From a virus, in the IMG/VR virus record IMGVR_UViG_3300045988_182866: a stretch of 64,000 nucleotides of DNA. One strand, written 5' to 3'. This document shows positions 285 to 36,814 of this stretch, in pieces. The notes beneath the pieces were generated by a model. That model searched no databases. It was not told the origin of the DNA and saw nothing but the letters and a program-made list of their open reading frames with translations. Every line of letters begins with the position of its first letter. Position 1 is the first letter of the stretch. Made by a program: the position numbers and the translations under genes.

Positions 285-1445
285 TTAAAGAGTTACAATA
301 AACCGGCTAATTGAGCCTGGAGCTGTAGACACCGAATATCCTAAACGTAGGACCAAAGCCAGCATGGTAGCTCGAGAGATCTTATTCTTTCGACCAACAC
401 TGCCGCAAAGCTGGGCAATATTAGTTCCTTGAATTATAGTGGGTCCTCCCAGAAAAACTGGAGACAGAGTACCGTCTTCCCTATTAACAAAATGATTCTG
501 AATATTTCGTTCAATAGCTTCCCGAGTCTTGGAAATGTTGGCAGGGCTGCACATTTCATCAATTATTCCCCGATCAGAAGCTTCAACATTAACCGGAGTA
601 CGATCCTTGGAACATTCCTTAACGTCAATGCCATCAACTTCTACATCAGGAGAAGTATAAGCTTCCTTAATTTCATTAAGAACTTTATATTTACTTACAC
701 GGCATTTTTGACATTCACAATCAGTAGGAACTGAAACAACATCTTGAGGATTAACTTCTACCGCAACTACGCGCTTTCCAAAACCCTTAGCATAATCATA
801 AGATCCAACATGCAATCCGGCACTACACCAGTTATTTCGATTTGCATCAACATCTGCAACTACTACTTCAATGACATCGCCGGGATTATTTCGAATTTGG
901 TAATGCCCGTTTACTTTACCTTGAAGCACTCTGGTTTCGGCATTACCATGAAGCGAATACATATCTTCTCCAACACCCTTATAGGCAATAAAGGTACCTT
1001 CGGAAGTAATAGGCAATTCCTGATAAGAAAGGAAGTCATAAAGCTCTTCTCTAGAAGTTTCGGAAGGATTAGCCATCAAGTTATCAATAAACTTAAAGTA
1101 ATGGGTAAAATCAGTACAACCAGACTTCCAAAGAGAAATAAGCTTTTTTTGAAGACATTTGGGAAGAATCTGAGTCTTATAAGAAGCAATAGTAGTAATT
1201 ACACCATTTTCATCTCGTTCAACAAATTGGAGATTATCGTAATCTTTAATTGTTTCAGAAACGGAATTAATGATATAAGAAGTGGTATTTTCCTTAAGAA
1301 GCCTGAGAAGAGTTTTTTCATCATTGGCCATTACCGCATCGACAATATCAGTATAGCGAACATCATCGGGAGTAATCTTAACTGCTCGACCATCAACAAA
1401 GAAGGTCCAGCCTGAGGCATTCATAATATATGGAATAGAATTCAT
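285..1445 (-). CDS. rIIB: rIIB-like protein (lysis-inhibition / membrane integrity protector)
   Basis: 386 aa. C-terminal half aligns by eye with T4 rIIB (FKFIDNLMANPSETSREELYDFLSYQELPITSEGTFIAYKGV vs T4 FPFLENLLENPSQKAVSRLFDFLVANDIEITEDGYFYAWKVV; CSAGLHVGSYDYAKGFGKRVVAVEVNPQDVVSVPTD vs CSRGLHVCSKSYIRHFGSSTDRVVKVKVHPRDVVSIPID). Sits immediately downstream of the rIIA-like gene on the same strand, as in T4. Confidence 0.8.
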   Translation of the reverse strand: MNSIPYIMNASGWTFFVDGRAVKITPDDVRYTDIVDAVMANDEKTLLRLLKENTTSYIINSVSETIKDYDNLQFVERDENGVITTIASYKTQILPKCLQKKLISLWKSGCTDFTHYFKFIDNLMANPSETSREELYDFLSYQELPITSEGTFIAYKGVGEDMYSLHGNAETRVLQGKVNGHYQIRNNPGDVIEVVVADVDANRNNWCSAGLHVGSYDYAKGFGKRVVAVEVNPQDVVSVPTDCECQKCRVSKYKVLNEIKEAYTSPDVEVDGIDVKECSKDRTPVNVEASDRGIIDEMCSPANISKTREAIERNIQNHFVNREDGTLSPVFLGGPTIIQGTNIAQLCGSVGRKNKISRATMLALVLRLGYSVSTAPGSISRFIVTL

Positions 1446-1456
1446 ATTTTGTTTAA

Positions 1457-3805
1457 TTAATATAGTTTATAGTTGAGTTTTTTGAGAATTCGCTTAAAGG
1501 TTAATTTAACTTTATCTTTTGTTTGAAATCCTGCACCATTTAAAACCGCTTGTATTTTTTCTTTTACAGAAGAAGTCATAATATAGGTTGAAATATTATC
1601 CAAACAAACTGATGACATAGTATAAAAGAAATTCAATATTTCTTTATCTGAAAGCTTTTTAATTTCAGCATCAAACTCTCTTTGAATATTATAACATTGA
1701 ATTGAAAGATCAAATATATCCATTATGAATCGGTTAAATCCTCCTCTATAAAGATTAATTTCATATCTTGTAGAGATAACCGGATAATCAGGAGTCGATG
1801 CAGAAATTTTTGGAGCTGTATATCCTGTTACAGATTTAAAATCAATATCATAAATCCTGCAGATATTAATGATTTGATCTGGAAGATAAACGAGTTTATG
1901 CTTTTTACAATATTCAATATAGGTTTCTTTCCATTTAATTTCTATAGCTGAAATGCACCCGAGAGAAACAAATTTATCGTAATGGTTTTTATAAAGCTTT
2001 GCTATTCGTTTAATGCCAAAATCTGTACAAAGATGAGACTGATAAAGCTGCGTCGGACTATTATAATTAACGAAATTTGTACAAAAGGCCAAATAAGAAT
2101 TAAGGTAGTTATCATTATTCATGCGCATTGAAGGATAAAATACTAACGTATTTTTGTATTCTTTCTCATCAATAATTTCACCGGTATAATAATCCCGGAG
2201 AACTACCGCTTCACCATCTGAAGACTTTATTCTTTTAGGCCTGACATATGTTGAATGCTTAACAATATCAGAATAATTAAACCAATCGATATTTTGCCTA
2301 AAGCACGGCTTGTCGTTAAAAGTAAAGGCCGTCCTTAAATTAAGGAAATTTGCTTTTTCTTCTTCATCTTTAACAAAACAAAAAATATGAGTTCTTCGAA
2401 GATCAAAGACTTCTGCTCGATAATCATTCCCCCTAAGGTGAACAAGATAATTATAAAGGGCATTAATTATTTCACCATAAGGAAGCTTGATAGGATCTTT
2501 ATCTTGAACGATAAAGATTATTTCACCGTCAAACTTCTTAATGGTCGGATTTGAATAAAGGCTTTTCGTTTTAAGATTAATATTAGTAATATTGCCTGAA
2601 CCTGCATAATAATTTTTTGCAACTGAGCAAACAGTATTCAAATAGCAATCCGGCCATTTAATAATTGAACTATTTCGATAAAATAAAGTACTTTTTGAGT
2701 TAGCTTTATTGATAATATCTGAACAAAGTAAATCACTGTCAATAAGTTTATCGACATAATCATTAATAGTCTTTTCATAATTTTTATTAATGATTTTAAA
2801 TTTACCCTTAATCCAATCATTTGTGAAATTGTTTATTTCAATCGATTCTCTGGTAGGAGAAATCGGAATTTCACCGCGTTTAAAAAATAAAAGAACGGTA
2901 CAAGCATTTTTAATGATATTATATTCATTAAAGATTTCATTAGGAATATCAATCTTGTAAATGTTATCCCCATCATAAGCATAATAATTACAGCTCTTAA
3001 AAAATGAAGAATAAAAAGTATTAGAAGACCGGTAATTCGGAATCAGCAAAACTGTATCTTTAATATAAAGAACTCGGGATTTGTCAAGAAATTCTTTATC
3101 TCGATACTTTGCAAATCTTGGGGTTTTTTCGTAAGGGACATAATTTTCCCATTTATCCTCCGGTACGTCTTCAATGTCTATTTTTTCCGGATAACTCCTA
3201 AGTTCAATGACAGGTTCATCACTATTGAAGCCAAAAGTAATATACGCATCCTTGATTAAATCAAGGAACTTGTAATAATCATCAGAATTATTAAGAGGAA
3301 TCTTTACCTCAATACCCGTATCATTCAAATCACAGGGTTCAGAATGAATCAAAGAAGCAATAGAATCATTACCATCAATGCTTGAAGAAAATGTATATTT
3401 TGTTCCTTCAAATCGAGAAATTACCAAATAAAGGCCTGTATATGCCGCAGGAGCCTTAGACCCGATTCCAAATCCTCCAATGGATGTATTTTCTTGATTC
3501 TTGGTAGATTCAAAATATTGAAAGAAAACTTGAAAAGTATCTTCTTTGCTAAGACCCCTGGCAAAATCACGAATAGAAAGTTCATTTTTTGTAAGATGAA
3601 TAGAAACAGGCCTTTTAATGCCATATTTTACATGTCCATCCAAAGCATTGCTTAACGTTTCAAAAAGTGTTGCCTTAAATTTGTCTGAATAGATCCTATC
3701 GCGCAAAATAGAAATTGCCATTCCTACGCGCTCGGCCGAGATAGACTGTTTGACCTGTTCGGCTATACCTCCGCAAATACTTTTATTCTCTTCAAAAACC
3801 TTCAT
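1457..3805 (-). CDS. rIIA: rIIA-like protein with N-terminal GHKL (Hsp90-like) ATPase fold
   Basis: 782 aa. Bergerat-fold motifs: N box ETLSNALDGH; G2 box SIGGFGIGSKAPAAYT, almost identical to T4 rIIA FIGGFGLGSKSPFSYT. Size and rIIA-rIIB gene order match T4. Confidence 0.8.
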   Translation of the reverse strand: MKVFEENKSICGGIAEQVKQSISAERVGMAISILRDRIYSDKFKATLFETLSNALDGHVKYGIKRPVSIHLTKNELSIRDFARGLSKEDTFQVFFQYFESTKNQENTSIGGFGIGSKAPAAYTGLYLVISRFEGTKYTFSSSIDGNDSIASLIHSEPCDLNDTGIEVKIPLNNSDDYYKFLDLIKDAYITFGFNSDEPVIELRSYPEKIDIEDVPEDKWENYVPYEKTPRFAKYRDKEFLDKSRVLYIKDTVLLIPNYRSSNTFYSSFFKSCNYYAYDGDNIYKIDIPNEIFNEYNIIKNACTVLLFFKRGEIPISPTRESIEINNFTNDWIKGKFKIINKNYEKTINDYVDKLIDSDLLCSDIINKANSKSTLFYRNSSIIKWPDCYLNTVCSVAKNYYAGSGNITNINLKTKSLYSNPTIKKFDGEIIFIVQDKDPIKLPYGEIINALYNYLVHLRGNDYRAEVFDLRRTHIFCFVKDEEEKANFLNLRTAFTFNDKPCFRQNIDWFNYSDIVKHSTYVRPKRIKSSDGEAVVLRDYYTGEIIDEKEYKNTLVFYPSMRMNNDNYLNSYLAFCTNFVNYNSPTQLYQSHLCTDFGIKRIAKLYKNHYDKFVSLGCISAIEIKWKETYIEYCKKHKLVYLPDQIINICRIYDIDFKSVTGYTAPKISASTPDYPVISTRYEINLYRGGFNRFIMDIFDLSIQCYNIQREFDAEIKKLSDKEILNFFYTMSSVCLDNISTYIMTSSVKEKIQAVLNGAGFQTKDKVKLTFKRILKKLNYKLY

Positions 3806-3829: not shown

Positions 3830-4735
3830 CTATAATTTTTCTCTAATTTTCTGGAGGTGTTCAGATATTTCTTTTTTAATGGTTTCTGCATTAGTTTTCC
3901 ATTGGCTGTCCCAAACTTCAATTAAAGTGATTCTGGCATCTTTACAAAGTTGCCTTTTATTTTCATGATAGCCAGGTTCTTTTTCTTCATGTATTTTATG
4001 CCAGTATTCGCCATTATATTCAAGGGCAAGTTTTAATTCAGGAAGATAAATATCCAATTCTTTTCGACCAATAAATTTTCTTGTATTTTCGAGAATTTCT
4101 CCAGGATAAATTGATTTGATAAAATCGCATAACTCCTTTTCACCCTTAGATTTCTTTTCATGAAGGGCACATTTTAAACATCCCCGCCCAGTTAAGTGAT
4201 TATACGCCATTTGAGCAAATTTACCATGGACAGGACAAATAATAATCACATTTGTTTCTGCATTAATATAAATTGTTTTCGAATAATCGAATTTATGTCC
4301 ATGCACTTTTTGAGCACGGTTAATAAATTCTTTTGTGGTTAAACGCTCCAATCCTACGCAACTTTTGCATCCATGCCCCCTTAAATGATTGATGGGATAT
4401 TGCTGAAAAGGTCCATGAACAGGGCAAATAATAGGTACTTTTGCATGATTATTTTTATAGTTTACTTTAGAATAATCATATTTGTTCCCATGAACCTCTC
4501 TTGCTTTCTTTATAAACTTCTCAGTCGTTAAAGATTTTGCATCAACTGCACATTTAAAACATCCCTGACCTCGTAAATGGGCTCCGGCTCTTTGTTGGAA
4601 AGGTCCATGAACCGGGCAAATAACAGTTATAGAACTATAAGCATTTTTATAATTTACTTCAGAATAATCAAAAAAGTCTCCATGTATTTTTCTAGCCCTG
4701 TCAATAAAAATTTCAGTGGTTATTCTGTTGGGCAT
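3830..4735 (-). CDS. freestanding homing-endonuclease-like protein: 3 tandem zinc-ribbon repeats + C-terminal Vsr/DUF559-like PD-(D/E)xK nuclease domain (paralog 1 of 5)
   Basis: 301 aa. Repeats of HGxKYDYSKVNYKN...ICPVHGPFQQ...HLRGxGCxxC. C-terminus KELDIYLPELKLALEYNGEYWH matches the Vsr-type (I/F)xxDGxxWH core. Paralogous to 6412..7503, 24661..26190, 35717..36814 and 40559..41908. Confidence 0.55.
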   Translation of the reverse strand: MPNRITTEIFIDRARKIHGDFFDYSEVNYKNAYSSITVICPVHGPFQQRAGAHLRGQGCFKCAVDAKSLTTEKFIKKAREVHGNKYDYSKVNYKNNHAKVPIICPVHGPFQQYPINHLRGHGCKSCVGLERLTTKEFINRAQKVHGHKFDYSKTIYINAETNVIIICPVHGKFAQMAYNHLTGRGCLKCALHEKKSKGEKELCDFIKSIYPGEILENTRKFIGRKELDIYLPELKLALEYNGEYWHKIHEEKEPGYHENKRQLCKDARITLIEVWDSQWKTNAETIKKEISEHLQKIREKL

Positions 4736-4810: not shown

Positions 4811-6415
4811 TCACTTTTCAGATTGTTCATCAACCAAGAATGTTTCTGTTGTTAGAATCAAACCTGCCGATGCAGCGGCGTTTTCAATTGCGCAACGACA
4901 TACACTAAATGGATCAATAATTCCCGCTTCTAACATGTCTACTAACTTTTGCGTCTTAATATCAAACCCGATACTGCCTTTAGCTTTTGCAACCTTTTCG
5001 ATGATAACATCCGGTCGTTCAACTCCGGCATTCTCAAGAAGAGTCTTAAGAGGAATATCAAGAACCTTTCGCATTAAGTTAACACCGGCATTAAAAGATT
5101 CATCTCCTGTTTCAAACTTAATAGACTTGTTTTCTTTAATCTTAGCGAGAACAGATCCTCCTCCTGGAATAACTCCGGATCGTAAAGCCGCTTGACAGGC
5201 ACACACCGCATCGTCTACACGATCCTTAATTTCATTTAATTCAGATTCAGAATTACCTCCGATATTAAGAACACATACTCCTTGGGCAAGCTTGGCAATT
5301 CGCTTATTAAGCACATCTTCTTCCCAGGAACCAGGACTGCAATTATCTCGTTCCTCTTTAAGCAAATCAATATGTTCTTTAAGCCTTTGAGGATTTCCTC
5401 CGCCTTTTAAGAAAGTTGTATATCGTTTATCACAAACAATCTTTTCACAGGTGGCAAAATCTTCCTCTCTAATAGAATTAAAATCACGTGAAAGAAGTTC
5501 AGTAAAATATGTACCCCCTAAAGTAATTTCAAGATCTTCCATTTCTCTCTTCATGCCGTCTCCATATCCGGGACACTTAATGGCACAAATGTTAATAATG
5601 CCTTTAATCTTATTAATGACAAGAGTTTGAAGAACTTCGGATTCAATATCCGGAGCGATAATAAACAAAGGCCTTCCACGAAGTTCTTTAGTATTAAAGA
5701 CCTTTTGAAGAATAGGCATAATTTGTTGATTATTCGTCAATTTAATTCCGGATAAAAGAATTAAGGGATTTTCAAGAATACATTCTTGTTTAGTCGTATT
5801 ATTGACAAAATAAGAACTCATCCAGCCTCGAGGAACTCGTAAACCTGCAATAAACTGGGAAGAAGATTCATTACTCCTGCTGTCATTAATAGTAATGGAA
5901 CCATCCAAACCTACTTTTTCAACAGCTTCAGAAACAAGATGTGCAATTTCTTTATCCCAGTTGGTAGAAACTAAAGCAATTTGGTGAATCTGTTCTGGAG
6001 AACATTCCTGCTTAATATTTTCTTTAATATAGTTGGCAATTGTCTTTGCCGCTGAAATAACTCCGCGTTGAATTAAAATCGGATTATAACCTGTTTCAAT
6101 CAGCTTCATGCCTTCAGATGCAATAGCCCCAGTGAGGATTGCGCTGGTACTGGTCCCATCACCAGCCTGGTGCGCTGATTGCTCGGATGCTTGACGAATA
6201 ATATCTGCACCCATTTTTTCAAGTACATCAGGCGGATTTACATGACGAGCTACTGTAACGCCGTCTTTTGTAATATATGTCGCATTACCCATTCGATATA
6301 TTACATTTCTGCCGCCAGGCCCGAGCGTCGAAGAAACTGCATTAGCAAGTTTCTTTACACCATTAAGCAGTTTCTTCCTGCCTTCATTTCCCATATAAAT
6401 GTTTTGTTGAATCAT
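4811..6415 (-). CDS. groEL: GroEL-like group I chaperonin (Hsp60/Cpn60 family), phage-encoded
   Basis: 534 aa. Diagnostic GroEL motifs: GPGGRNVIY (GroEL GPKGRNVVL), AGDGTSTS (GroEL AGDGTTTA), and the C-terminal equatorial-domain pattern. No GroES-like co-chaperonin ORF is adjacent. Confidence 0.85.
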   Translation of the reverse strand: MIQQNIYMGNEGRKKLLNGVKKLANAVSSTLGPGGRNVIYRMGNATYITKDGVTVARHVNPPDVLEKMGADIIRQASEQSAHQAGDGTSTSAILTGAIASEGMKLIETGYNPILIQRGVISAAKTIANYIKENIKQECSPEQIHQIALVSTNWDKEIAHLVSEAVEKVGLDGSITINDSRSNESSSQFIAGLRVPRGWMSSYFVNNTTKQECILENPLILLSGIKLTNNQQIMPILQKVFNTKELRGRPLFIIAPDIESEVLQTLVINKIKGIINICAIKCPGYGDGMKREMEDLEITLGGTYFTELLSRDFNSIREEDFATCEKIVCDKRYTTFLKGGGNPQRLKEHIDLLKEERDNCSPGSWEEDVLNKRIAKLAQGVCVLNIGGNSESELNEIKDRVDDAVCACQAALRSGVIPGGGSVLAKIKENKSIKFETGDESFNAGVNLMRKVLDIPLKTLLENAGVERPDVIIEKVAKAKGSIGFDIKTQKLVDMLEAGIIDPFSVCRCAIENAAASAGLILTTETFLVDEQSEK

Positions 6416-7503
6416 GATTTACAATTATTATAGCATGTTTCTTTGATAAACTTTTTTAATTTTTCCTTATTCTTTCGCCACTGAGTATCTAAAATTTCTA
6501 TTAATTTTATACCTTTTTTCTCACAATCTTTTTTCTTTTGAACATGATAGCCTGGATATTTTTCTTCCTTTAACTTATGATGGTAATCACCGTTGCATTC
6601 AAAGGCTAGATTTAATTCAGGAAGATAAACATCAAGTTCTTTTTTTCCAATAATATCTCTTGGGTTTTCTTGAACCTCGCCTGGATAAATTGATTTAATA
6701 TATTGACAAAGTTCTATTTCACCTTTAGATCTTTTTGATGCCGCTAAGCATTTAGGGCAACCGCTTCCGCGTAGATGCGTATTGGGCAACTGTAAAAATG
6801 GGCCATGTTTTTTACAAGTTATAATAATTTTTGTTTTTGCATTTTTATAAGCTACCAAAGAATAATCATACTTGTCTCCATGAGTAGCTCTAGCTTTTTC
6901 TATAAATTCTTCAATAGTTCTCTTATTATTTCCGGCACAAAATGGGCAGCCGGAGCCTGAAAAATGCTTATCAGGGCGTTGTTCAAAAACTCCATGTATG
7001 GGACATATAATTTTTACTTTTGTTCTTTTATTTTTATAAATTACTAAAGAATAATCATATTTGGTTCCATGAACTTCAATAAATCTTTTTCTAATCTCTT
7101 CCTCAGTTAAAAACTGATTTTTAATTGCACATTTTTTACATCCTTTTCCTATTAAATGGCTTGATGGATCTTGCTTAAGGGTACAACCACATTTATTACA
7201 TTTTATGATTACCTCGGTTGTTGAATTTATATAATTAACTAAAGAATAATCATATCGGCCTTTCCCATGAATTTCTTCAGCTTTTTCTATAAATTCTTCT
7301 GTAGTCCTGTTAAATCCTTTACATTTAGGACAACCATGGCCCATTAAATGAATGTTGGGAATTTGCTCAAAGTAGCCATGTATGGGACAAAATATTTTAA
7401 TTAATGTTTTTGTGTTAAAATATACAACTTCAGAATAACCATACTTATTGCCATGTATTTCAATAGCTTTTTTAATAAACCCTTTAGTTGTTAATCTTTT
7501 CAC
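6412..7503 (-). CDS. freestanding homing-endonuclease-like protein: 4 zinc-ribbon repeats + Vsr/DUF559-like nuclease domain (paralog 2 of 5)
   Basis: 363 aa. Repeats IHGNKYGYSEVVYFN...CPIHGYFEQ...HLMGHGCPKC. C-terminus KELDVYLPELNLAFECNGDYHH. Overlaps the chaperonin start by 4 nt (ATGA). Confidence 0.55.
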   Translation of the reverse strand: MKRLTTKGFIKKAIEIHGNKYGYSEVVYFNTKTLIKIFCPIHGYFEQIPNIHLMGHGCPKCKGFNRTTEEFIEKAEEIHGKGRYDYSLVNYINSTTEVIIKCNKCGCTLKQDPSSHLIGKGCKKCAIKNQFLTEEEIRKRFIEVHGTKYDYSLVIYKNKRTKVKIICPIHGVFEQRPDKHFSGSGCPFCAGNNKRTIEEFIEKARATHGDKYDYSLVAYKNAKTKIIITCKKHGPFLQLPNTHLRGSGCPKCLAASKRSKGEIELCQYIKSIYPGEVQENPRDIIGKKELDVYLPELNLAFECNGDYHHKLKEEKYPGYHVQKKKDCEKKGIKLIEILDTQWRKNKEKLKKFIKETCYNNCKS

Positions 7504-7662
7504 GATTTTTAATCATTATAGCACGAATTAATAAATTTCTGCCCGCAATTTGAATCTAAATCTTCGAAAGATATGGAATTACCGCAAGGAGGATGCTTAT
7601 ATTGAACGGGAAAATATCCTTTCTGGCAGCAGCAAGAAGACAGAAGAAATATTACTAATAAT

Positions 7663-8085
7663 TTAACCCCAAGTGAATAATCCATAACCCCAGTACCGGC
7701 TTATATTAGGAAGAGGATTTGGTGTTTCTTCAAGGAAAATAGTCTGGCCGGGATGCCGCTTTTCATATACTTGCTTTACAAGGAAAATAATAAGAGATAT
7801 GAAAAAGTCAATTATAAAATGAACGTTATCTGTCTGTCCCTGTAAAATATTTTCGATGAGGTCAAATTTATTTTCTTTAAGATAATCAATTAGCTCAACC
7901 GGAAGAATATCATCTTCGCCAGCGGCAAAAATATTATCATCAAAATCAAACCCTAGTTCAGATTTAATGCCATCTAAACATTGTTCAAATTCTTCTTTAG
8001 TAAGATCAGTCTTTAACCATACTATATCTCTTTCATCATGTCCATCTCCGGACAAATCACCATATTCAAAACTAAAAATATTCAT
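7663..8085 (-). CDS. hypothetical protein (acidic N-terminus, hydrophobic segment)
   Basis: 140-aa ORF codirectional with its neighbours; no recognisable motif. Confidence 0.35.
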   Translation of the reverse strand: MNIFSFEYGDLSGDGHDERDIVWLKTDLTKEEFEQCLDGIKSELGFDFDDNIFAAGEDDILPVELIDYLKENKFDLIENILQGQTDNVHFIIDFFISLIIFLVKQVYEKRHPGQTIFLEETPNPLPNISRYWGYGLFTWG

Positions 8086-8145
8086 ATCAATATAAATGGA
8101 AATTCCGCCTAATATTAAATTAGGCAGAATTTCTTTATTTGTTAA

Positions 8146-9195
8146 TTAATTACCAGCAGGTTTAAAATCTGCAATATTCAGAACCTTAAACAAACCATCG
8201 TTTTGATTAGCTCCTCCCATAATCAACATTGAAGGAAGTTTAATATCTTTAAAAGATTCAAAAAACTTAATTCGTGCATAATTACTTCCCATTGCTGCAT
8301 TCAATTCTCGAATTGCTTCAGCTTCAAGCTTCTTACCTTGAGCTTCTGCGGTCTTCATAGCAAGAAGAGCTTCTGCTTCATTTTTCTTTTGAGCAAGCAT
8401 GGCCAAAGACTCTTGTTCTCGGCGATACCTTGCAGCATCAGATTCAGCCTTAGCCTGAAGAAGTTTACCTTGAGCTTCTGCAGCCATCTTATTGGCAATT
8501 GCCCGGCCTTCTGCATTAGCAATCTCTTCGGAACGCTTTGCAATTTCAAGCTGGGTAGCCTGGCGTTCATATTCCTGAGTAGCCTCAACCTTCTTAGTAA
8601 TACCAAGAGTCACCGATTCAGGTGGAATAGTGGAACCAATAGTTACACTTTCAACAATAAATGGAGTGCCATTAAGTTGCTTCTTAAGGTTAGTTTCTAC
8701 CATCTTGGTGATTTCCGGAATCCTAGAAGGAGCTTCTAGACCTTTAAACTTAGCAATAGCAGATCGTACTTCGGTACGGAAAGGTTGCTGAATAAATGAA
8801 GCGTAAGCATCTTGAGCAATAGCTTCCGGGCATCGAGCTGTTTCAGAGATAGCTCCATAATTTTCAACAAATTCCTTTACTTTTTCACTGTCGATACGAT
8901 AAACAAGATAAGATTCAGCCTTCATCTTAAGCTGGTCCGAACTACGAACATCATCAAAAGTTTCAGTCTGAGTATAAGGAGTTACGCAAATCTTAATAGA
9001 ATTCTGCCTCCATACCATACCTGTACTACCGGGTCCTTTAATTACTTGCTTAAATTCCTTCGAACCAAATATAGGTTCGGAATAAACATAACCTGCGTAA
9101 CCGCCATCGATTTTTTCATTTGAAAAATTAACGGCAAAAATAATAGCCGCAACAACGGCAATAATTAGAAATAGAGCTGCAAAAAAATCCTTCAT
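8146..9195 (-). CDS. SPFH/band-7 (stomatin/prohibitin/flotillin/HflK-C) family membrane protein
   Basis: 349 aa. N-terminal TM helix FFAALFLIIAVVAAIIFAV, then an SPFH-like core, then an Ala/Glu-rich coiled coil (EAEALLAMKTAEAQGKKLEAEAI) typical of HflK/HflC/YdjI-type proteins. Confidence 0.6.
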   Translation of the reverse strand: MKDFFAALFLIIAVVAAIIFAVNFSNEKIDGGYAGYVYSEPIFGSKEFKQVIKGPGSTGMVWRQNSIKICVTPYTQTETFDDVRSSDQLKMKAESYLVYRIDSEKVKEFVENYGAISETARCPEAIAQDAYASFIQQPFRTEVRSAIAKFKGLEAPSRIPEITKMVETNLKKQLNGTPFIVESVTIGSTIPPESVTLGITKKVEATQEYERQATQLEIAKRSEEIANAEGRAIANKMAAEAQGKLLQAKAESDAARYRREQESLAMLAQKKNEAEALLAMKTAEAQGKKLEAEAIRELNAAMGSNYARIKFFESFKDIKLPSMLIMGGANQNDGLFKVLNIADFKPAGN

Positions 9196-9237
9196 GTTTT
9201 ATTTTCTTTTTATTTTTTAATGTGACTAATATTAATG

Positions 9238-9687
9238 TTATACAGAAATATTATTAGTAACTGGAATTCCAACCACTGGAATCTTGGTCTTTAACTTAAT
9301 CTTATAATCCCCCACAACTAAATCCTTTGCCTTTATCTTAGAAATAGCATTGGAAACTGTAGTGATATTATATTTTTTACCTCGTTGAGACTTCACAACA
9401 TCGATAAGATTTCGTTCAACTGCCAACTGAACTTCTGAATCACTAAGTTCCTCAGGAGCTTGAATAATTACATAAGAACGATCTTGAAATTGTTCGACTT
9501 CTGTATCATCCAAAACAATCGGCATTACAAGAAATCGATTTTTAACTCGATTTTTCTTTTCGGTCAATTCTTTCTCTTGCTCAACAAGAGCCTTTGCTTC
9601 CTCCAGAATAATTTTTTGTTTATCCTGAGGTACTTTAGAAGCCGCAAGAATCATCTCAAGGTCTTCAATATCAATTTTTAGTGCCAT
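9238..9687 (-). CDS. hypothetical protein (between PspA-like and SPFH genes)
   Basis: 149-aa ORF codirectional in the PspA...SPFH gene string. Confidence 0.35.
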   Translation of the reverse strand: MALKIDIEDLEMILAASKVPQDKQKIILEEAKALVEQEKELTEKKNRVKNRFLVMPIVLDDTEVEQFQDRSYVIIQAPEELSDSEVQLAVERNLIDVVKSQRGKKYNITTVSNAISKIKAKDLVVGDYKIKLKTKIPVVGIPVTNNISV

Positions 9688-9690
9688 AGT

Positions 9691-10257
9691 TTATATTTGA
9701 TATGTGATTAAATCCGTTGTCAATTTATTAATTGTTTCAATAAATGCTACCGGGATAGCTTCTTCAATTTTTAGTAAAAGTAATTTTAAGTTCTCATTAA
9801 CTTTAGGGCCAAATAAAATATATTGAGTATCATTGTTTAAATCGACAGAATAAGCTTTAAAATTTGCTTGATTAAAACTTATAACTGTAAATCTATCAAC
9901 AATTAAATTGTTTTTTAAAAAAGTCTCTCTGACAAAATTCTCAAGATCTCTGGAATAAATTCCTCTATGATGATCTACTTCTACTTCAATTAAAAAAGAT
10001 TGATTTATATCAATAAAGTGGTCAAATGAAGCTATTCCTAAAGTATTCCACCAAGTAAAATACCTTTCATTAAGGCCATTCTTTACTTTAATGATTTTGC
10101 TTTTATTGGCAAATGGAGAGTAAATTGTAAAAGCATGTTTAAAATCTTCAATAGTCCTGTAAGCAGGATCTTCAAAGAATTCTTCTTCAAATAAATCGAC
10201 TTGGTAAGTTTTACCATTACCAAGTCGATCAATAAGTTTGAAAACTGCTTGTTTCAT
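9691..10257 (-). CDS. hypothetical protein (between PspA-like and SPFH genes)
   Basis: 188-aa ORF; start/stop abuts the PspA-like gene (10257). Confidence 0.35.
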   Translation of the reverse strand: MKQAVFKLIDRLGNGKTYQVDLFEEEFFEDPAYRTIEDFKHAFTIYSPFANKSKIIKVKNGLNERYFTWWNTLGIASFDHFIDINQSFLIEVEVDHHRGIYSRDLENFVRETFLKNNLIVDRFTVISFNQANFKAYSVDLNNDTQYILFGPKVNENLKLLLLKIEEAIPVAFIETINKLTTDLITYQI

Positions 10258-10931
10258 TAACTCTCAGCAACACGAGCCTTCAAACGGGCAAGAGCATCTT
10301 CTTTAGATACAGATTCAATAAATTCATTCATTTCATCTTTAGTATCATTAAGAGTTCCGCTTACTTCAATTGAAGCATCGGCCTTAGAATCTTTCTTTTC
10401 AAGAATCTTATCTACATCTGCCAGCATCCCGTTAAAATCATTTTTGCCTGAAATATTCGCAATATCCTTCAAAGCAGCAAGATCTTCCTTCATAGCAGCA
10501 GATGCAGCCTTCAACTTAATCTGTTCAATTCGAGAATCATAAGAATTAAGAACAACTCTTTGATTACTAATCAACTTATCATAAGTTGCAGTTGCTTCTT
10601 CAAGAGCCTTTTCAGCCATATCAAGCTGTGCCTTAGTATTTTCATATTGAAGAGAAAATTCGGCGGCAAGACTTTCCTTGCCATTCTTAAGAGCAAGAAT
10701 GGCTCGTTCATTGAGAACTTGAACCTTTTGCTTAAGACTCTTTACATTTTTAGTCATGTTGTTTACTGTAGTCTTTACAGCAACCAATCGTTCATAAATT
10801 TCTTGCTCGGCCTTGCTCTTTTCATCTTCGAGAGACGCAATAAGAGCATCAACATTCTTACTTTCAAGTGAATTTACACCAAGATTAAGCCAGCCAAACA
10901 AAACACGTCCCAAACGTCCAATAATTCTCAT
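10257..10931 (-). CDS. pspA: PspA/IM30/Vipp1-family protein (phage shock protein A-like, bacterial ESCRT-III superfamily)
   Basis: 224 aa, all coiled coil. N-terminus MRIIGRLGRVLFGWLNLGVNSLESKNVDA parallels PspA [27 protein letters not shown]; heptad-rich body parallels PspA helices. Confidence 0.6.
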   Translation of the reverse strand: MRIIGRLGRVLFGWLNLGVNSLESKNVDALIASLEDEKSKAEQEIYERLVAVKTTVNNMTKNVKSLKQKVQVLNERAILALKNGKESLAAEFSLQYENTKAQLDMAEKALEEATATYDKLISNQRVVLNSYDSRIEQIKLKAASAAMKEDLAALKDIANISGKNDFNGMLADVDKILEKKDSKADASIEVSGTLNDTKDEMNEFIESVSKEDALARLKARVAES

Positions 10932-10937
10932 ATATTT

Positions 10938-11207
10938 TTAAATTTTAATTTTTTGATTTTCGTCCAAATATTTGTATTCGTTAAGTATTACAAATTGATT
11001 TTTAATACTTTCTTTATCCCAATTAACTCCAATTTCTTTGAATTTATTAACGCTTAATTTAATTTCAGTCTGCCCGTTTCTTATTAACCAAAACTTGGCT
11101 TTTTCATCAATTGTTATTTCTCCATCAGAAGGAATTAAAGTATGGTAATAATTTTCAAGAAATGCTTTTTGATTGCGCGTCCAAAGCCATTTAGGATAAT
11201 CAAGCAT
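10938..11207 (-). CDS. hypothetical protein
   Basis: 89-aa ORF; the conserved 16-mer upstream motif lies 27 nt before its ATG. Confidence 0.35.
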   Translation of the reverse strand: MLDYPKWLWTRNQKAFLENYYHTLIPSDGEITIDEKAKFWLIRNGQTEIKLSVNKFKEIGVNWDKESIKNQFVILNEYKYLDENQKIKI

Positions 11208-11234: not shown

Positions 11235-11250
11235 TTTAAAGGTGATTAAT
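11235..11250 (-). promoter_or_regulatory. conserved 16-mer TTTAAAGGTGATTAAT (minus-strand ATTAATCACCTTTAAA) 27 nt upstream of a minus-strand start codon; exact second copy at 23485..23500
   Basis: Exact 16-nt duplicate found by eye. Both copies sit exactly 27 nt upstream of a minus-strand ATG (11207 and 23457). Confidence 0.35.
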
Positions 11251-11710
11251 TTCCTGCGTATTCAACTAAAAGAACAGAAATATCATGCTTTGTTCGAAAA
11301 TTATACAAAAGATTTTCAAATTCTTTTGGTTTTACTCGTCCTATACCGCATCCCAAAAAAGGCATTACAACAGTATTAAGATGATGAGTGTTCATAACTT
11401 CAAACAAATCGCAAAGAGACAAAGAAATATCTCCCAAATTTGCTATTGAACCAGGATAAAACATGGTTGGAACATTGGCAATCATTTTCCAATTATCTTC
11501 ATCGGACAAATAAAAATAATGGCCTTTACCAATATTAACCATTTTAGAATTACAAGAGTTCTGATAACTCCAGTACATTTCAGGAAATTTATCGGCAAAA
11601 GCTTTTGCAACTCCTGCTCCCATTACTCCGATACAATTGACGGCATTGCAAATTACATCCGCCTTTGTATCAAAGATATTTCCTTTTGTTTTAATAACTT
11701 TAAGAGACAT
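11246..11710 (-). CDS. macro domain protein (ADP-ribose binding / ADP-ribosyl hydrolase fold)
   Basis: 154 aa. ICNAVNCIGVMGAGVAKAF matches the macro-domain NAAN...GGGV signature. Confidence 0.6.
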   Translation of the reverse strand: MSLKVIKTKGNIFDTKADVICNAVNCIGVMGAGVAKAFADKFPEMYWSYQNSCNSKMVNIGKGHYFYLSDEDNWKMIANVPTMFYPGSIANLGDISLSLCDLFEVMNTHHLNTVVMPFLGCGIGRVKPKEFENLLYNFRTKHDISVLLVEYAGN

Positions 11711-24660: not shown

Positions 24661-26190
24661 ATGAACCTTTCTTTATTGACAGTATTATGTCATGGCAAAA
24701 ATAATAGCCAACTTAAAGAATTATTAAAAAATAATAAAATATTAAATTTTATTAATACTTTTATTAAAGATAAACCTTATTATGAAACACCCTTTAGATT
24801 TTTAAAATTGTTGAGTAAAAATGCAACATTACCTGCCTGTATTATATGTGGAAATATTATTTCTTATAGTATTTGGAATAGACGTAATAATGCTAAATTT
24901 TGTTCTAAAACTTGCAAATATTCTAAAGAAGGTAAAGAAAATACTAGAAAAAATATTGAAAAAACATTAATTGAAAAATATAAGGTTAAAAATATTTTAC
25001 AACATAAAAAGTTTAAAGAAAAACAAGAATTAACTTGTTTAGCAAAATACGGAACTAAATTTTATTCAAAAACTTCAGAATGTAAAGAAAAAGTTAAGAA
25101 GACGTCATTAGAAAAATTTGGTACAAATAATGTGATGTTCAATAAAAAGGTTTTAAAAAATATAAAAAATAATAATTTATTAAAATTTGGGGTTGAATGG
25201 CCTTTATCAGATAAAACTATTCATAAAAAAACTATGAATAGTCTTGTTAAAAAACATTTAGAAAAGCTTAAAAAGTTTAATTTAACTTTGTTAGATGAAT
25301 ATCAATCCACAAAAGAATACTATAATTTTAAATGTGCTACATGTGGTAATACATTTAAAGATCATTTAAAAAATGGTAGAATTCCTATATGCAAACATTG
25401 CTTTCCTTCTAATACTTCTATTGGGGAAAAAGAATTATCAAACTTTATTAAACAATTTTCTTCTAATATTAGCTTAAATGATAGAACATTAATAAATCCT
25501 TTAGAATTAGATATTGTTATTCCAGAAAAACATTTAGCAATAGAATTTAATGGGCTATATTGGCATTCTGAAGAACATGGTAAAAATGAAAATTATCATA
25601 TTAATAAATCATTATTATGTAAATCTAAAAACTTTAATTTAATTCATATATTTGAAGATGAATGGCTTTTTCAAAAAAATATAATAAAAGGTATTATAAA
25701 AGATTATTTTAATAGCAAAAAAATAAAAACAAATTTTATTACATTTAAAAAAATCGATAATAAATTAGCTAAAAAATTTAATGAAAAATATAATATTCTT
25801 GGACATATTACTACAAAAAATAATTTTGGACTTTTTTATAAAAATAGATTAATACATGTATTATCTGTTGGAAAACCAAGATTTAATAAAATTTACAAAT
25901 ATGAAATTTATCGATTATCCTCAACATTTAATTTTAAAATTGAAAATTATTTTAAAGTTTTAATTGATAATTTACCTTTATCAATTAAAGAATCATTAAT
26001 ATTTTATGAAAATAAACGTTTTCCTATTATTAATAAAACATTATTAGATAATTTGATATTTTTATCAAATTCTAAGCCAAGCTATTTTTTTGTCAAAAAT
26101 AAAAATAGATATTCAAAATATAATAAAATAAATAGATTTGATTATAAAATTTGGGATTGCGGATCAACACTTTATCAGGTTAAATATTAA
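24661..26190 (+). CDS. divergent member of the homing-endonuclease-like family (zinc ribbons + central Vsr-like nuclease domain + ~170-aa C-terminal extension; paralog 3 of 5)
   Basis: 509 aa. Contains ELDIVIPEKHLAIEFNGLYWH (Vsr-like core) and CxxC/HC ribbons (IPICKHCFP, CATCGNTF); weaker repeats than the other paralogs. Confidence 0.45.
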   Translation: MNLSLLTVLCHGKNNSQLKELLKNNKILNFINTFIKDKPYYETPFRFLKLLSKNATLPACIICGNIISYSIWNRRNNAKFCSKTCKYSKEGKENTRKNIEKTLIEKYKVKNILQHKKFKEKQELTCLAKYGTKFYSKTSECKEKVKKTSLEKFGTNNVMFNKKVLKNIKNNNLLKFGVEWPLSDKTIHKKTMNSLVKKHLEKLKKFNLTLLDEYQSTKEYYNFKCATCGNTFKDHLKNGRIPICKHCFPSNTSIGEKELSNFIKQFSSNISLNDRTLINPLELDIVIPEKHLAIEFNGLYWHSEEHGKNENYHINKSLLCKSKNFNLIHIFEDEWLFQKNIIKGIIKDYFNSKKIKTNFITFKKIDNKLAKKFNEKYNILGHITTKNNFGLFYKNRLIHVLSVGKPRFNKIYKYEIYRLSSTFNFKIENYFKVLIDNLPLSIKESLIFYENKRFPIINKTLLDNLIFLSNSKPSYFFVKNKNRYSKYNKINRFDYKIWDCGSTLYQVKY

Positions 26191-35701: not shown

Positions 35702-35737
35702 AAAAAAGCTGAATCATTAATTTGATTCAGCTTTTTT
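35702..35737. terminator. conserved hairpin family, copy A (aaaaaagctgaatca-ttaatt-tgattcagctttttt)
   Basis: Perfect stem flanked by A-run and T-run; lies between convergent genes and overlaps the last codons of 35717..36814. Confidence 0.5.
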
Positions 35738-36814
35738 AATCGCTTCTTGAATTAAAAGTTTTATTTGATCTTTATTTTTCTTCCATTTACTTTCCCAAAT
35801 TTCTATCAATGTAATTCCCCTTTCAATACATTGATTTCTTTTATTTTCATGATAACCCAGATTTCGATCTTCGTGTAATTTATGCCAGTAATCTCCATTA
35901 TATTCAAAGGCTAATTTTAATTCAGGGAGATAAATATCAAGCTCTAATTGATTATCAAGTTGATTTCTAGAATTTTTTATAATTTTTCTTGAATATATCG
36001 AATTAATATATTCAAAAAGTTCTTTTTCACCTTTAGATCTTTTCGAAGCTTTTACACATTTAATACAGCCACTTCCATTTAAATGAATATATGCTCTTTG
36101 TCGAAAGACACCATGCCTTGGACAAATAATATTCACATAATCACGAGCACTTTTATATTCAACTCTTGAATAATCATATTTGTCTCCATGAACTTCTTGA
36201 GCTCTTTTAATAAATTCTTCAGTTGTTAAAAATTGCTTTTCTCTTTTACATTCTGGACATTCATTGCCTTGTAAATGTGACCCTGCATGTTGTCGAAATA
36301 ATCCATGCTTAGGACATATTATTGTTATATGATTTTTTACGCCATTATAAATCACTTTAGAATAATCATAATAATTTCCATGCACTTTTTTAGCTTTTTC
36401 AATAAACTCTTCTCTTGATAAAAGATCTTTTATTTTAGCACAATAAGGACATCCACTTCCATTTAAATGGCTGCCAGCCATTTGTTCAAATTTATGCCCG
36501 CATTTATTACAAATAATCCAAATTTTTGATTTACAATTTACGTATATCGATATTGAATAATTATACTTATCACCATGAACTTTTCTTGCTTTTTCTATAA
36601 ATTTTTCTGTTGTTAACTGTGCCGTGGGAATACATTTAGGACATCCACATCCTCTTAAATGTTCTGATGCTTTTTGCCAAAAATATCCATTCTCAGGACA
36701 ACCAATTTCTATTTTTGCAAGACTACTTTTATATTCAACTCTTGAATAATCATATTTGTCACCATGTATTTCTTTAGCCCTTTGTATAAATTCTTCAGTT
36801 GTTAGCTTTTTCAT
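35717..36814 (-). CDS. freestanding homing-endonuclease-like protein: 5 zinc-ribbon repeats + Vsr/DUF559-like nuclease domain (paralog 4 of 5)
   Basis: 365 aa. Repeats IHGDKYDYSRVEYKS...CPxHGxFxQ...HLxGxGCPxC. C-terminus QLELDIYLPELKLAFEYNGDYWH. Confidence 0.55.
   Translation of the reverse strand: MKKLTTEEFIQRAKEIHGDKYDYSRVEYKSSLAKIEIGCPENGYFWQKASEHLRGCGCPKCIPTAQLTTEKFIEKARKVHGDKYNYSISIYVNCKSKIWIICNKCGHKFEQMAGSHLNGSGCPYCAKIKDLLSREEFIEKAKKVHGNYYDYSKVIYNGVKNHITIICPKHGLFRQHAGSHLQGNECPECKREKQFLTTEEFIKRAQEVHGDKYDYSRVEYKSARDYVNIICPRHGVFRQRAYIHLNGSGCIKCVKASKRSKGEKELFEYINSIYSRKIIKNSRNQLDNQLELDIYLPELKLAFEYNGDYWHKLHEDRNLGYHENKRNQCIERGITLIEIWESKWKKNKDQIKLLIQEAIKKAESN

Follow-up and report, generated by a model that had tools for sequence, protein, structure and literature searches.

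The locus studied here raises the question of whether a phage has joined PspA/Vipp1 and SPFH proteins, which are universal membrane-maintenance machines, in a single gene cluster. The earlier note on this DNA had read four minus-strand genes as a phage-borne mirror of the pspA-ydjGHI envelope-stress operon of Bacillus subtilis. PspA and Vipp1 are ESCRT-III-type membrane stabilizers that maintain the proton-motive force (PMF) (PMC8281802; bioRxiv 10.1101/2020.09.23.309765), and a functional link between such proteins and SPFH proteins has so far been seen in Bacillus and deduced for the ESCRT systems of archaea (PMC8581546, PMC10936438). The note's account of the Bacillus operon is accurate (PMC8581546), and, in line with its remark, the literature that we searched held no characterized phage pspA-SPFH operon.

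The window, a stretch of 64,000 nt from IMG/VR virus record IMGVR_UViG_3300045988_182866, originates from a very common, uncultured human-gut phage of ~200 kb. The phage is a myovirus, and the window encodes rIIA, rIIB, GroEL, a large terminase subunit, a tail sheath and a baseplate wedge subunit. More than 1,000 public contigs carry the exact viral PspA protein; a full-length PspA is fixed in one of the most often assembled ~200 kb gut phages. The cluster lies in a long same-strand array with DHFR, ThyA, ligase, a DarG-like Macro gene, GroEL, rIIA and rIIB, which is a nucleotide-metabolism and host-takeover gene arm. As the note had stated, rIIA and rIIB are encoded here too, ~4.3 kb from the cluster. 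The flanking Macro gene is DarG-like (PADLOC E = 1e-30) and is by sequence a candidate for an anti-DarT function. The region around the cluster is rich in HNH and TnpB insertions and in lineage-specific ORFs; in six ~200 kb variants compared, HNH and TnpB insertions were found only outside the block reaching from up89 to a 140-aa ORF after the SPFH gene. Small membrane proteins are encoded downstream of the cassette, and in the sister lineage (L025) one of them sits inside it.

The genes are listed in Table 1 in the order in which they would be transcribed: up89, PspA (A), B, C, SPFH (D) and a hairpin. The PspA gene, the two ORFs following it and the membrane-anchored SPFH gene were all recovered where the note had placed them. 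The tight coupling that it described held for these four genes, but the extent was drawn too short, since up89 belongs to the unit as well, which starts one gene before PspA. The up89 stop codon precedes the PspA start by 6 nt. The PspA stop overlaps the start of B in a shared TAATG, and because of this overlap the two genes may be translationally coupled. The B-C and C-D gaps are 3 nt and 42 nt, respectively. The sister lineage has a 335-nt insert between C and D, which suggests that D may have its own promoter.

Table 1. Features of the PspA-SPFH cluster (positions in the window)
Feature	Position	Strand	Description
up89	10938..11207	-	89 aa, soluble; conserved PspA partner upstream
A, PspA/IM30 homologue	10257..10931	-	224 aa, full length; cationic amphipathic N-terminal helix alpha0
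B	9691..10257	-	188 aa, soluble; this species complex only
C	9238..9687	-	149 aa, soluble; this species complex only
D, SPFH/Band-7	8146..9195	-	349 aa; one N-terminal TM helix, SPFH domain, helical C-terminal region
Hairpin	8099..8133	-	15-bp stem; terminator scan and RNA fold

The hairpin begins 12 nt past the SPFH stop codon. It folds at -21.5 kcal/mol (z = -7.0), and none of 200 shuffled sequences was as stable (0/200). Furthermore, variants that differ by a U.G to C-G switch preserve it, as does the sister lineage, where a single compensatory change has turned a T-A pair into A-T. It is probably an intrinsic terminator or a 3' stabilizer at the end of the transcription unit. Purifying selection acts on each of the five genes, with dN/dS values of 0.04 to 0.26 (computed against the sister lineage, dS 0.5-0.7). 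We conclude from the sequence that up89, PspA, B, C, SPFH and the terminator hairpin constitute one compact transcription unit.

Protein A matched the Pfam family PspA_IM30 (PF04012; E = 1.4e-7) over profile positions 5-217 of 220 with 31.8 bits, 2 bits below the cut-off of 33.9, and PF04012 is listed for it among the database's precomputed Pfam hits. When A and its five closest relatives were aligned by hhalign with 16 Pfam-positive bacterial PspA homologues, the match was full length (226 columns, 99.8%, E = 6.8e-28). The parent alignment holds 26 sequences, of which 24 match PF04012, and no second family shows up repeatedly; a profile of all 26 retrieved solved Vipp1/PspA chains from the PDB, beginning at residue 1 (E = 4e-15). 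The six-sequence profile (A with its five closest relatives) did not by itself reach a PDB PspA in an HMM-to-sequence search, and single-sequence phmmer of A against the PDB returned unrelated coiled coils only.

The AlphaFold model of A (mean pLDDT 79.8, above 90 in the hairpin) has helices at residues 3-17, 23-82, 86-158 and 166-223, with helix alpha0 and a long hairpin. The cellular PspA/Vipp1 structures (6zvr, 7o3w, 7abk, 4whe) likewise have helix alpha0, the alpha1-alpha2/3 hairpin and C-terminal helices. A shares the PspA length class, and in the profile alignment it is colinear with them from end to end; unlike Vipp1, it is without a C-terminal extension. In a Foldseek search with the model, Vipp1/PspA filled the first 14 places among the PDB matches, ahead of Snf7 and CdvB and of generic coiled coils, at modest E-values (3e-4 at best); this fold evidence is not fully independent because the AlphaFold MSA contained PspAs. 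Residues 2-19 (RIIGRLGRVLFGWLNLGV) include three Arg and have a hydrophobic moment of 0.63, the maximum of the protein, and R6 and E23 are near-invariant over the 26 homologues. That A is instead a generic coiled coil, a scaffold or chaperone matching PspA by compositional bias only, would fit the subthreshold Pfam score, the phmmer result, the six-sequence profile that missed PDB PspA and the modest Foldseek values, but it can practically be dismissed given the end-to-end colinear alignments from residue 1 with alpha0 and the two near-invariant residues, the recurrence of PF04012 in the family, the hhalign E-value and the 14-deep run of Vipp1/PspA among the structure matches. By sequence and predicted fold, A is a bona fide full-length PspA of the bacterial ESCRT-III superfamily.

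The clade of A comprises six clusters at 50% identity, all on phage-like contigs. Identity to the nearest cellular PspAs is ~20-28%, and these come from other organisms than the relatives of the SPFH protein. The dN/dS of A was 0.15. No PHROG family, phrog_1203 included, matched A at E <= 0.01; its five closest relatives gave no PHROG match in three cases and weak partial matches to unrelated families in two. When up89, the 140-aa ORF and the four proteins between them were scanned with Pfam and NCBIfam, none of the regulatory partners PspF, PspB and PspC was recognized.

Protein D matched Band_7 (PF01145) at residues 28-216 with 64.8 bits (cut-off 23.6; E = 1.4e-17) and phrog_200 with E = 3e-28; its best PDB match, to prohibitin, was weak (E = 0.006). 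Thus, the profile searches proposed as a check in the earlier note recovered both the PspA and the SPFH fold. The TM helix of D (residues ~4-24, Kyte-Doolittle 3.2) is kept in all homologues, the C-terminal segment at ~200-300 is rich in Ala, Glu and Lys, and the only cysteines, C70 and C122, are both distant from the C terminus. The dN/dS of D is 0.07. Since the family has an N-in/C-out charge pattern, the SPFH domain probably faces the periplasm, across the membrane from the cytoplasmic PspA.

HflK/HflC and prohibitins resemble D in the single N-terminal TM, the N-in/C-out charges and the long, Ala/Glu-rich helical C terminus. Unlike HflK/HflC, D has no paired second SPFH subunit, and it is not an HflK equivalog because it scored 13 bits with NCBIfam TIGR01933 (hflK), against a cut-off of 159.4. 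The phage SPFH proteins of PHROG 200, e.g., Staphylococcus phage SEP1 gp101 ("lipoprotein," "HflC" or "prohibitin family"), are, like D, N-terminally anchored Band-7 proteins of large lytic phages, but are only ~24-27% identical to it (tblastn); in two records inspected, no PspA-like gene was annotated beside them. The closest relatives of D are chromosomal SPFH proteins of the Akkermansia type (~64% identity). Those of Akkermansia, Akkermansiaceae and related gut bacteria (L031-L081) are 59-65% identical to D over the whole length, share with it the N-terminal TM followed by an NxSNEKVDGGY motif, and form the sister group of the phage clade. Unlike D, they are encoded in a housekeeping context (M3 peptidase, AlaRS, RmlD) on chromosomes with 51-64% GC, and in 51 such loci (2-15 kb examined per locus) no PspA was found nearby.

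The remaining three proteins differ in their distribution. Homologues of up89 are encoded directly upstream of PspA in L010 (34% identity), L007 (28%) and L025 (95.5%), making up89 the only partner conserved beside PspA across three diverged phage lineages. It has the lowest dN/dS of the block (0.04), no TM segment and no Cys, and it matched nothing in Pfam, PHROG, NCBIfam, PADLOC or the PDB. B and C are real genes according to their dN/dS values (0.26 and 0.07, respectively), B being the fastest evolving of the block. Among 5.8 billion proteins, B formed only 12 clusters (77-99% identity), and C is represented by 38 clusters that are all 90-100% identical. B had no match in any profile library used or in the phage collection and was absent from all related loci examined; C had no profile or phage-database match. 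In neither protein was a TM segment detected (best 19-residue windows 1.24 and 0.83, below threshold), and both are without Cys. The AlphaFold model of B is unusable (pLDDT 47.8). From its sequence, C appears to consist of an N-terminal helix and a domain that is probably beta-rich.

These data bear on the proposed mirroring of the Bacillus operon. In the B. subtilis pspA-ydjGHI (samGHI) operon, as in the phage, PspA comes first and SPFH last with two genes between them (PMC8581546; bioRxiv 10.64898/2026.02.06.704340), and in both an ESCRT-III-type protein is tied to an SPFH protein at the cytoplasmic membrane. However, in B. subtilis a soluble YdjI with a C-terminal zinc finger is held at the membrane by the integral membrane proteins YdjG and YdjH, on which its recruitment depends (PMC8581546), whereas the middle proteins of the phage cluster are soluble, Cys-free and unique to the species complex. 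Unlike YdjI, the phage SPFH has its own TM helix, a probable periplasmic orientation and no C-terminal Cys. In addition, the phage cluster has the extra conserved up89 before PspA, and its genes are of different origin. The predicted N-in/C-out topology of D argues against contact with PspA through the SPFH domain. Since, moreover, the relatives of D are not linked to pspA and the linkage is not general among phages, the proposed mirroring of pspA-ydjGHI is not supported. Because the closest relatives of D are chromosomal and have no PspA nearby, the pair was apparently assembled inside the phage and not inherited as an operon. The comparisons indicate that the cluster was put together in the phage from unrelated sources and is no copy of the Bacillus operon.

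Related lineages were inspected for the linkage of the two genes. Both are kept together in only one other lineage (L009/L010), in which PspA is followed directly by SPFH with a 10-nt gap and neither B nor C between them. There, the SPFH is 62-73% identical to D, and the order Macro, up89 homologue, PspA, SPFH is kept, although the PspA is only ~27% identical. PspA without SPFH was found in L007, which is otherwise syntenic, and in L008, L011/12, L013/14 and L028; SPFH without PspA was found in at least three phage lineages (L017, L019, L021, L022), with 2-18 kb covered per phage locus, and in the 51 bacterial loci. Since the linkage is not general, the adjacency could be an accident of a gene-flux hotspot.

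Which function do these genes serve? The most likely reading, to which we give about an even chance, is that they form an accessory cassette for membrane maintenance, placed in the host-takeover arm of this abundant ~200 kb gut myovirus. In the infected cell, the phage PspA would bind the host inner membrane from the cytoplasmic side via alpha0, polymerize like cellular PspA/Vipp1 and seal or stiffen the stressed membrane, so that the PMF would be kept up until the phage is ready for lysis. The up89 protein would be a dedicated PspA partner, regulator or adaptor. SPFH, captured from an Akkermansia-type housekeeping gene, would form an oligomeric scaffold on the same membrane, probably at the periplasmic side; B and C may be lineage-specific add-ons. 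Given their probable location on opposite faces, PspA and SPFH would act in parallel on one membrane, and SPFH would not be a YdjI-like recruiter. The phage could thereby be shielded from the membrane damage that it causes itself, from superinfection or from membrane-depolarizing abortive-infection (Abi) effectors. A full-length viral PspA shows that phages invest in a working host membrane.

A rather unlikely alternative is that PspA (together with up89) and SPFH became neighbors by coincidence in a hypervariable early-gene region and serve as accessory genes independently of each other; a host-derived SPFH could then have its own role, e.g., in modulation of an FtsH-type protease, as for HflK/C, or in superinfection exclusion. 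The solitary occurrence of each gene in most related lineages, the different evolutionary origins of the two and the HNH/TnpB insertions and lineage-specific ORFs crowding the region agree with it. So do the predicted opposite membrane faces, which speak against direct contact, and the Kuttervirus sal1 genome, in which SPFH adjoins a superinfection-exclusion gene ~30 kb from a PspA-like gene. It is at odds with the gene order kept between lineages with such divergent PspAs, with the single terminator after D, and with the variants examined of this species, in none of which a mobile element splits the genes.

A more far-reaching reading, which we consider doubtful, is that the virus has independently assembled an ESCRT-III plus SPFH module from an ancient phage-specific PspA, up89 as a new dedicated partner and a host-lineage SPFH, and that this module would hold the inner membrane and the PMF against membrane-targeting Abi effectors or superinfection. 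If this applies, up89 would stand for a kind of PspA regulator or adaptor not described before. Should PspA and SPFH indeed work as a pair, the phage would have arrived at this partnership independently and by convergence, and up89, PspA and SPFH would provide a compact system for studying targeting and regulation of an ESCRT-III-type polymer.

Phage PspA-like genes have been published before, for Kuttervirus in 2022 (PMC9409062) and for Jug phages in 2025-26 (PMC12880540 / PMC12363816). The Kuttervirus protein (SeF3a Gp_125 / phrog_1203; sal1_196 in MT499896.1), encoded like that of the window by a large rII-carrying myovirus, was hypothesized to preserve the PMF against abortive infection (PMC9409062), and the anti-Abi idea raised in the earlier note is thus not new. 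In the sal1 record, whose genome is 99.2% identical, it is annotated as a fragment-sized protein (80 aa), and its gene is distant from the SPFH gene of that phage, whereas the PspA of the window is full length and clustered with SPFH; a complete phage PspA makes the published idea directly testable. The Jug (jumbo gut) phages are also abundant and huge (360-402 kb) and have a pspA-like gene in a transcribed operon, but its partner is terD, no SPFH is mentioned, and they differ from the window phage in clade and genome size (PMC12880540 / PMC12363816).

That the cassette is dedicated to counter-defense, neutralizing Abi effectors that permeabilize or depolarize the inner membrane and complementing rIIA/rIIB and the DarG-like Macro protein, seems improbable to us. 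In addition to the Kuttervirus proposal (PMC9409062), the flanking Macro gene and the proximity of rIIA/rIIB are compatible with such a role, and B evolves fastest, as is often the case for arms-race genes. However, selection on all genes is purifying, not positive, and since PspA is a general membrane stabilizer, nothing favors defense over general infection physiology.

A role in lysis timing or membrane remodeling, with holin triggering delayed (lysis inhibition) or the inner membrane made into vesicles or compartments, is very unlikely. PspA/Vipp1 polymers can remodel, tubulate and fuse membranes (bioRxiv 10.1101/2020.09.23.309765; PMC11919738), PHROGs class rIIA/rIIB as lysis-inhibition genes, and small membrane proteins follow the cassette or, in one lineage, lie within it. 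Nevertheless, the cassette is located among early-type genes with no recognizable holin or endolysin adjoining, no other compartment-forming genes were identified, and the reading is speculative. Finally, the closeness of D to its Akkermansia-type homologues provides a lead to the host of the phage.

The earlier note had described four minus-strand ORFs, encoding a PspA/IM30 homolog (A), two small proteins (B and C) and an SPFH/Band-7 protein (D); their strand and coordinates were confirmed exactly. A and B overlap in a TAATG, B and C are separated by 3 nt, and C and D are separated by 42 nt. Upstream, the unit extends to up89, an 89-aa ORF with its stop codon 6 nt 5′ of the A start. Downstream, it extends to a hairpin with a 15-bp stem, located 12 nt 3′ of the D stop codon. 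The hairpin folds at −21.5 kcal/mol (z = −7.0), and 0/200 shuffled sequences folded as well. It is kept among variants, where a U·G pair switches to C-G, and in the sister phage lineage L025, where a single T-A pair has become A-T in a compensatory change. We refer to up89, A, B, C, D and this probable terminator hairpin as the cassette. A sigma-70 promoter scan gave no enrichment and was uninformative. No Shine-Dalgarno motif was found upstream of the start of any cassette gene, and window-wide such a motif precedes 1 of 56 ORFs, compared to a background of 13% in random windows.

The window has a GC content of ~31% and stems from a large myovirus. PHROG profiles gave further matches beyond those in the table: an ATP-dependent DNA ligase, the large terminase subunit, the tail sheath, a baseplate wedge subunit and the tape-measure protein, as well as five or more HNH homing endonucleases. 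The Macro-domain gene upstream of up89 is a candidate anti-DarT (DNA ADP-ribosylation) counterdefense gene. It is kept two genes upstream of PspA, adjoining the up89 homolog, in the phage loci L009/L010 (41% identity) and in L025. The genes for the 140-aa and 58-aa products near the hairpin have L025 counterparts of 74% and 84% identity, respectively, and both vary more than the cassette.

Features of the window and selection on genes compared with L025
Feature	Position	Strand	Size	Match or remark	dN/dS
rIIB	285-1445			PHROG profile	
rIIA	1457-3805			PHROG profile	
HNH/DUF723 homing endonuclease, paralog	3830-4735				
GroEL	4811-6415	minus	534 aa	PHROG profile; Cpn60, E = 1.7e-59	
HNH/DUF723 homing endonuclease, paralog	6412-7503				
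Cys-rich peptide	7509-7685	minus	58 aa	signal- or lipobox-like N terminus; near terminator hairpin	
Acidic protein	7663-8085	minus	140 aa	one TM helix, residues ~88-106; just past terminator hairpin	
D	9195..8146	minus	349 aa	SPFH/Band-7	0.07
C	9687..9238	minus	149 aa		0.07
B	10257..9691	minus	188 aa		0.26
A	10931..10257	minus	224 aa	PspA/IM30	0.15
up89			89 aa		0.04
Macro-domain protein	11246-11710	minus		PADLOC DarG model, E = 1e-30	0.08
HNH/DUF723 homing endonuclease, paralog	24661-26190				
HNH/DUF723 homing endonuclease, paralog	35717-36814				
HNH/DUF723 homing endonuclease, paralog	40559-41908				

Protein A is a divergent PspA. It matched Pfam PspA_IM30 with E = 1.4e-7 over profile positions 5-217 of 220, 2 bits under the curated cutoff. 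NCBIfam gave no PspA call for A, and the PADLOC and NCBIfam scans of A, B, C and D returned noise only. Only 31 clusters reached E ≤ 1e-3 when 1.84 billion representatives were scanned exhaustively with HMMER. These were the cluster of A itself (P0121), five closer relatives of full length (P0123, P0124 and P0127 to P0129; 26 to 42% identity), five clusters of short fragments, a multirepeat protein of 1,565 aa and ordinary proteins of ~200 to 280 aa. When the window protein was aligned with 25 full-length matches, 24 of the 26 members of this family alignment matched PF04012, and no other family recurred. The profile of this alignment aligned from residue 1 with solved Vipp1/PspA chains (6zvr, E = 4e-15). 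A control profile limited to A and its five nearest relatives matched no PspA in the PDB; single-sequence phmmer searches of the PDB with A and D also yielded nothing useful. Intermediates or profile-profile comparison were required. The small profile matched a profile of 16 bacterial homologs from the same hit list with 99.8% probability (E = 6.8e-28; 226 columns).

The AlphaFold model of A (mean pLDDT 79.8; hairpin >90) comprises helices 3-17 (α0), 23-82, 86-158 and 166-223. Its 14 best PDB matches were all Vipp1/PspA, above generic coiled coils, Snf7 and CdvB. Residues 2-19 have the highest hydrophobic moment in the protein (0.63) and include three arginines, and R6 and E23 are near-invariant in the family alignment. 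The full-length profile matches, the structure ranking and α0 bear out the PspA assignment made previously. Because of the profile, model, α0 and conserved-residue evidence, it is very unlikely that A is just a generic coiled coil.

The SPFH assignment of D was likewise upheld, by a Band_7 score far over the cutoff (64.8 versus 23.6 bits) and a single N-terminal TM helix; phrog_200 was matched with E = 3e-28. The best PDB match, prohibitin, was weak (E = 0.006). The PHROG label suggesting a lipoprotein was rejected, since the Cys close to where the hydrophobic stretch ends has no conserved position, and D itself lacks it. In one genome per bacterial and archaeal species, we detected 51 loci with proteins 52 to 71% identical to D. 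Almost all of these loci come from MAGs labeled Akkermansia, Akkermansiaceae or Verrucomicrobiales, and a few are labeled Paludibacteraceae, Kiritimatiellae or Clostridia. The Akkermansia-type loci are chromosomal (51 to 64% GC), with no phage markers and no PspA in the 2 to 15 kb of DNA covered per locus; in the single one viewed closely, the SPFH gene lies among M3 oligopeptidase, RmlD, glycosyltransferase and AlaRS genes. In a distance tree, the SPFH proteins of the window, L025 and L010 form one phage clade, which is sister to the cellular group (59 to 65% identity) and distant (~45%) from another phage SPFH lineage, L017/L019. The sister position indicates that the phage gene was acquired from an Akkermansia-like lineage or exchanged with one. 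Its origin is separate from that of PspA.

In the cellular D homologs, a Lys/Arg-rich tail precedes the TM helix, and a net-acidic motif that is conserved, NxSNEKVDGGY, follows it. Together with the positive-inside rule, this charge pattern predicts an N-in/C-out orientation of D. The SPFH domain would then face the periplasm, as in HflK/C and prohibitins. Two 36% GC MAG contigs from Paludibacteraceae/Clostridia bins, L066 (375 kb) and L076 (254 kb), have SPFH genes that are 94% identical. In L066, an EcoRI-type methylase gene comes next after the SPFH gene, within a run of small same-strand ORFs. Rather than chromosomal DNA, these contigs may represent large phages or mobile elements.

The Akkermansia-type affinity of the SPFH gene provides a possible host lead, and the near-absence of Shine-Dalgarno motifs points to a host with Shine-Dalgarno-independent translation starts. 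However, the GC content of the phage does not fit that of the Akkermansia-type chromosomal loci. Also against these leads, one identical protein carries the NCBI bin label "Candidatus Gastranaerophilales bacterium HUM_18." We did not count this label as host evidence and treated it as a binning artifact or a weak host hint. The candidate host groups are Akkermansiaceae, other members of the PVC group or Bacteroidota.

Relative to L025 (dS 0.5 to 0.7), every gene compared is under purifying selection. B and C have no TM segment and no cysteine, and no match was found in Pfam, PHROGs, NCBIfam, PADLOC or the phage collection. Among 5.8 billion proteins, B retrieved 12 clusters (77 to 99% identity) and C retrieved 38 (90 to 100%), all of this phage species complex. 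Both are missing from every related locus compared, and a negative all-against-all BLAST led us to reject homology to neighbor genes in those loci. The AlphaFold model of B (variants 77 to 99% identical) was too poor for use (pLDDT 47.8). For up89, no match was found in the Pfam, PHROG, NCBIfam and PADLOC libraries or the PDB. Homologs of it are located directly 5′ of PspA in L010 (34% identity) and in another phage locus, L007 (28%), and up89 is the sole conserved partner of this phage PspA group. In L025, the C-D spacer (4930-5264) is 335 nt long, compared to 42 nt in the window, and on the coding strand specifies a strongly hydrophobic peptide (~78 aa) with apparently about three TM segments. 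This spacer brings in an additional membrane component and may supply D with a promoter of its own.

The exact A sequence is present on >1,000 contigs, many of 195 to 206 kb. In six variants, up89, A, B, C, D and the 140-aa ORF stay together as a whole block, and HNH and TnpB elements were gained or lost just outside it. The HNH copy at 6412-7503 is absent from variants L004 and L006, showing that the HNH/DUF723 elements are actively mobile within the species. A TnpB/Cas12f-like gene lies between Macro and up89 in one variant (L001, 8529-9641), and an IS605 OrfB-type gene lies 3′ of rIIB in L004 and L006 (from ~19784). These TnpB/IS605 insertion polymorphisms flank the cassette, and none interrupts it.

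In L009/L010, the order is Macro, up89 homolog, PspA and SPFH, without B and C and with a PspA-SPFH gap of 10 nt. The SPFH protein is 62 to 73% identical to D, depending on the alignment, and PspA is ~27% identical to A. L007 is a true relative (GroEL 53%, rIIB 49% and rIIA 35% identical) with the order thioredoxin, up88 ORF, PspA, 103-aa ORF and GroEL, on to rIIA/rIIB, and has no SPFH gene at the syntenic site. In the window, no GroES-sized gene adjoins the GroEL gene, and homing endonucleases are on its flanks. PspA occurs in other contexts without SPFH in L008, L011/12 and L013/14, and SPFH occurs without PspA in L017 (=L020), L019, L021 and L022, in the ~2 to 15 kb of DNA covered per locus. 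Searches for loci with narrower PspA alignments detected the same species only, or one unrelated viral PspA. The latter is a bona fide PspA on a 179-kb viral contig (L028), where it adjoins a ligase gene and a PARP-like gene; none of the neighboring ORFs scanned matched Band_7. Thus, the PspA-SPFH pairing is kept in two lineages across deep divergence and is neither universal nor ancestral to a cellular operon.

In Bacillus, YdjG, YdjH and YdjI are encoded along with PspA, and PspA foci depend on YdjI (PMC8581546), as the earlier note had accurately recounted. Its proposal that the phage cluster mirrors this module did not hold. YdjI is a soluble protein with a zinc finger at its C terminus, and the TM proteins YdjG and YdjH tether it, whereas D is self-anchored and probably extracytoplasmic. 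Moreover, the middle proteins of the phage are soluble and confined to the species complex, and its genes have separate origins. The likeness does not go beyond gene order and family content. If A and D cooperate, their association is convergent and virus assembled. A convergent phage pairing would fit the wider ESCRT-III/SPFH link noted in archaeal systems (PMC10936438).

A PspA homolog (phrog_1203) was described in Kuttervirus SeF3a by Gendre et al. 2022, who proposed that it acts, alongside rII, as an anti-Abi device against PMF loss (PMC9409062). In sal1, a 99%-identical phage, the gene annotated "PspA/IM30 family protein" encodes only 80 aa. Its distance to the SPFH gene, which is beside a superinfection-exclusion gene, is ~30 kb. 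In Jug phages, a pspA-like gene is cotranscribed with terD (PMC12880540), and phage SPFH genes are common (PHROG 200). Among the INPHARED cultured phages, no match was obtained by megablast of the region or by tblastn with A, B, C or either of two bacterial PspAs as the query; tblastn missed the 80-aa Kuttervirus gene, later found by annotation, and is therefore insensitive here. In line with the earlier note, no characterized phage pspA-SPFH operon was found in the literature searched. The new findings are a viral PspA of full length that has α0, its conserved small partner and its co-cluster with an SPFH gene in a highly prevalent gut phage.

The cassette combines its gene content and compact layout with a terminator, purifying selection and partly conserved linkage, and lies in an early-type host-takeover arm. 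We favor, with middling confidence, a general role in membrane maintenance. PspA would bind the cytoplasmic leaflet via α0 and polymerize, decreasing proton leak, while up89 would regulate or target PspA. The SPFH protein would scaffold the same membrane from the opposite side, and B and C may be lineage-specific modifiers. That PspA and SPFH are functionally independent neighbors is rather unlikely; the separate origins of the two genes and the occurrence of each without the other speak for it, and their adjacency in L009/L010 speaks against it. A dedicated anti-Abi device, as proposed for the Kuttervirus PspA with rII, is an improbable reading of the cassette, although rIIA and rIIB are also encoded in the window. 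Small weight is given to a function in lysis timing or membrane remodeling, and to A not being a functional PspA.

Two phages with PspA in other contexts showed further features. In L008 (3060-4324), two paralogous genes, 28% identical, lie 3′ of the PspA homolog P0124; their products each carry a TM helix at the C terminus and an N-terminal part that is Ser-rich or of low complexity, and are a different, possibly membrane-related partner set for a phage PspA. In L013 (3785-7216 and 8493-9533) and L014, from a phage with the PspA homolog P0129, several long ORFs contain in-frame TAG, which suggests that the TAG stop is recoded in this lineage.
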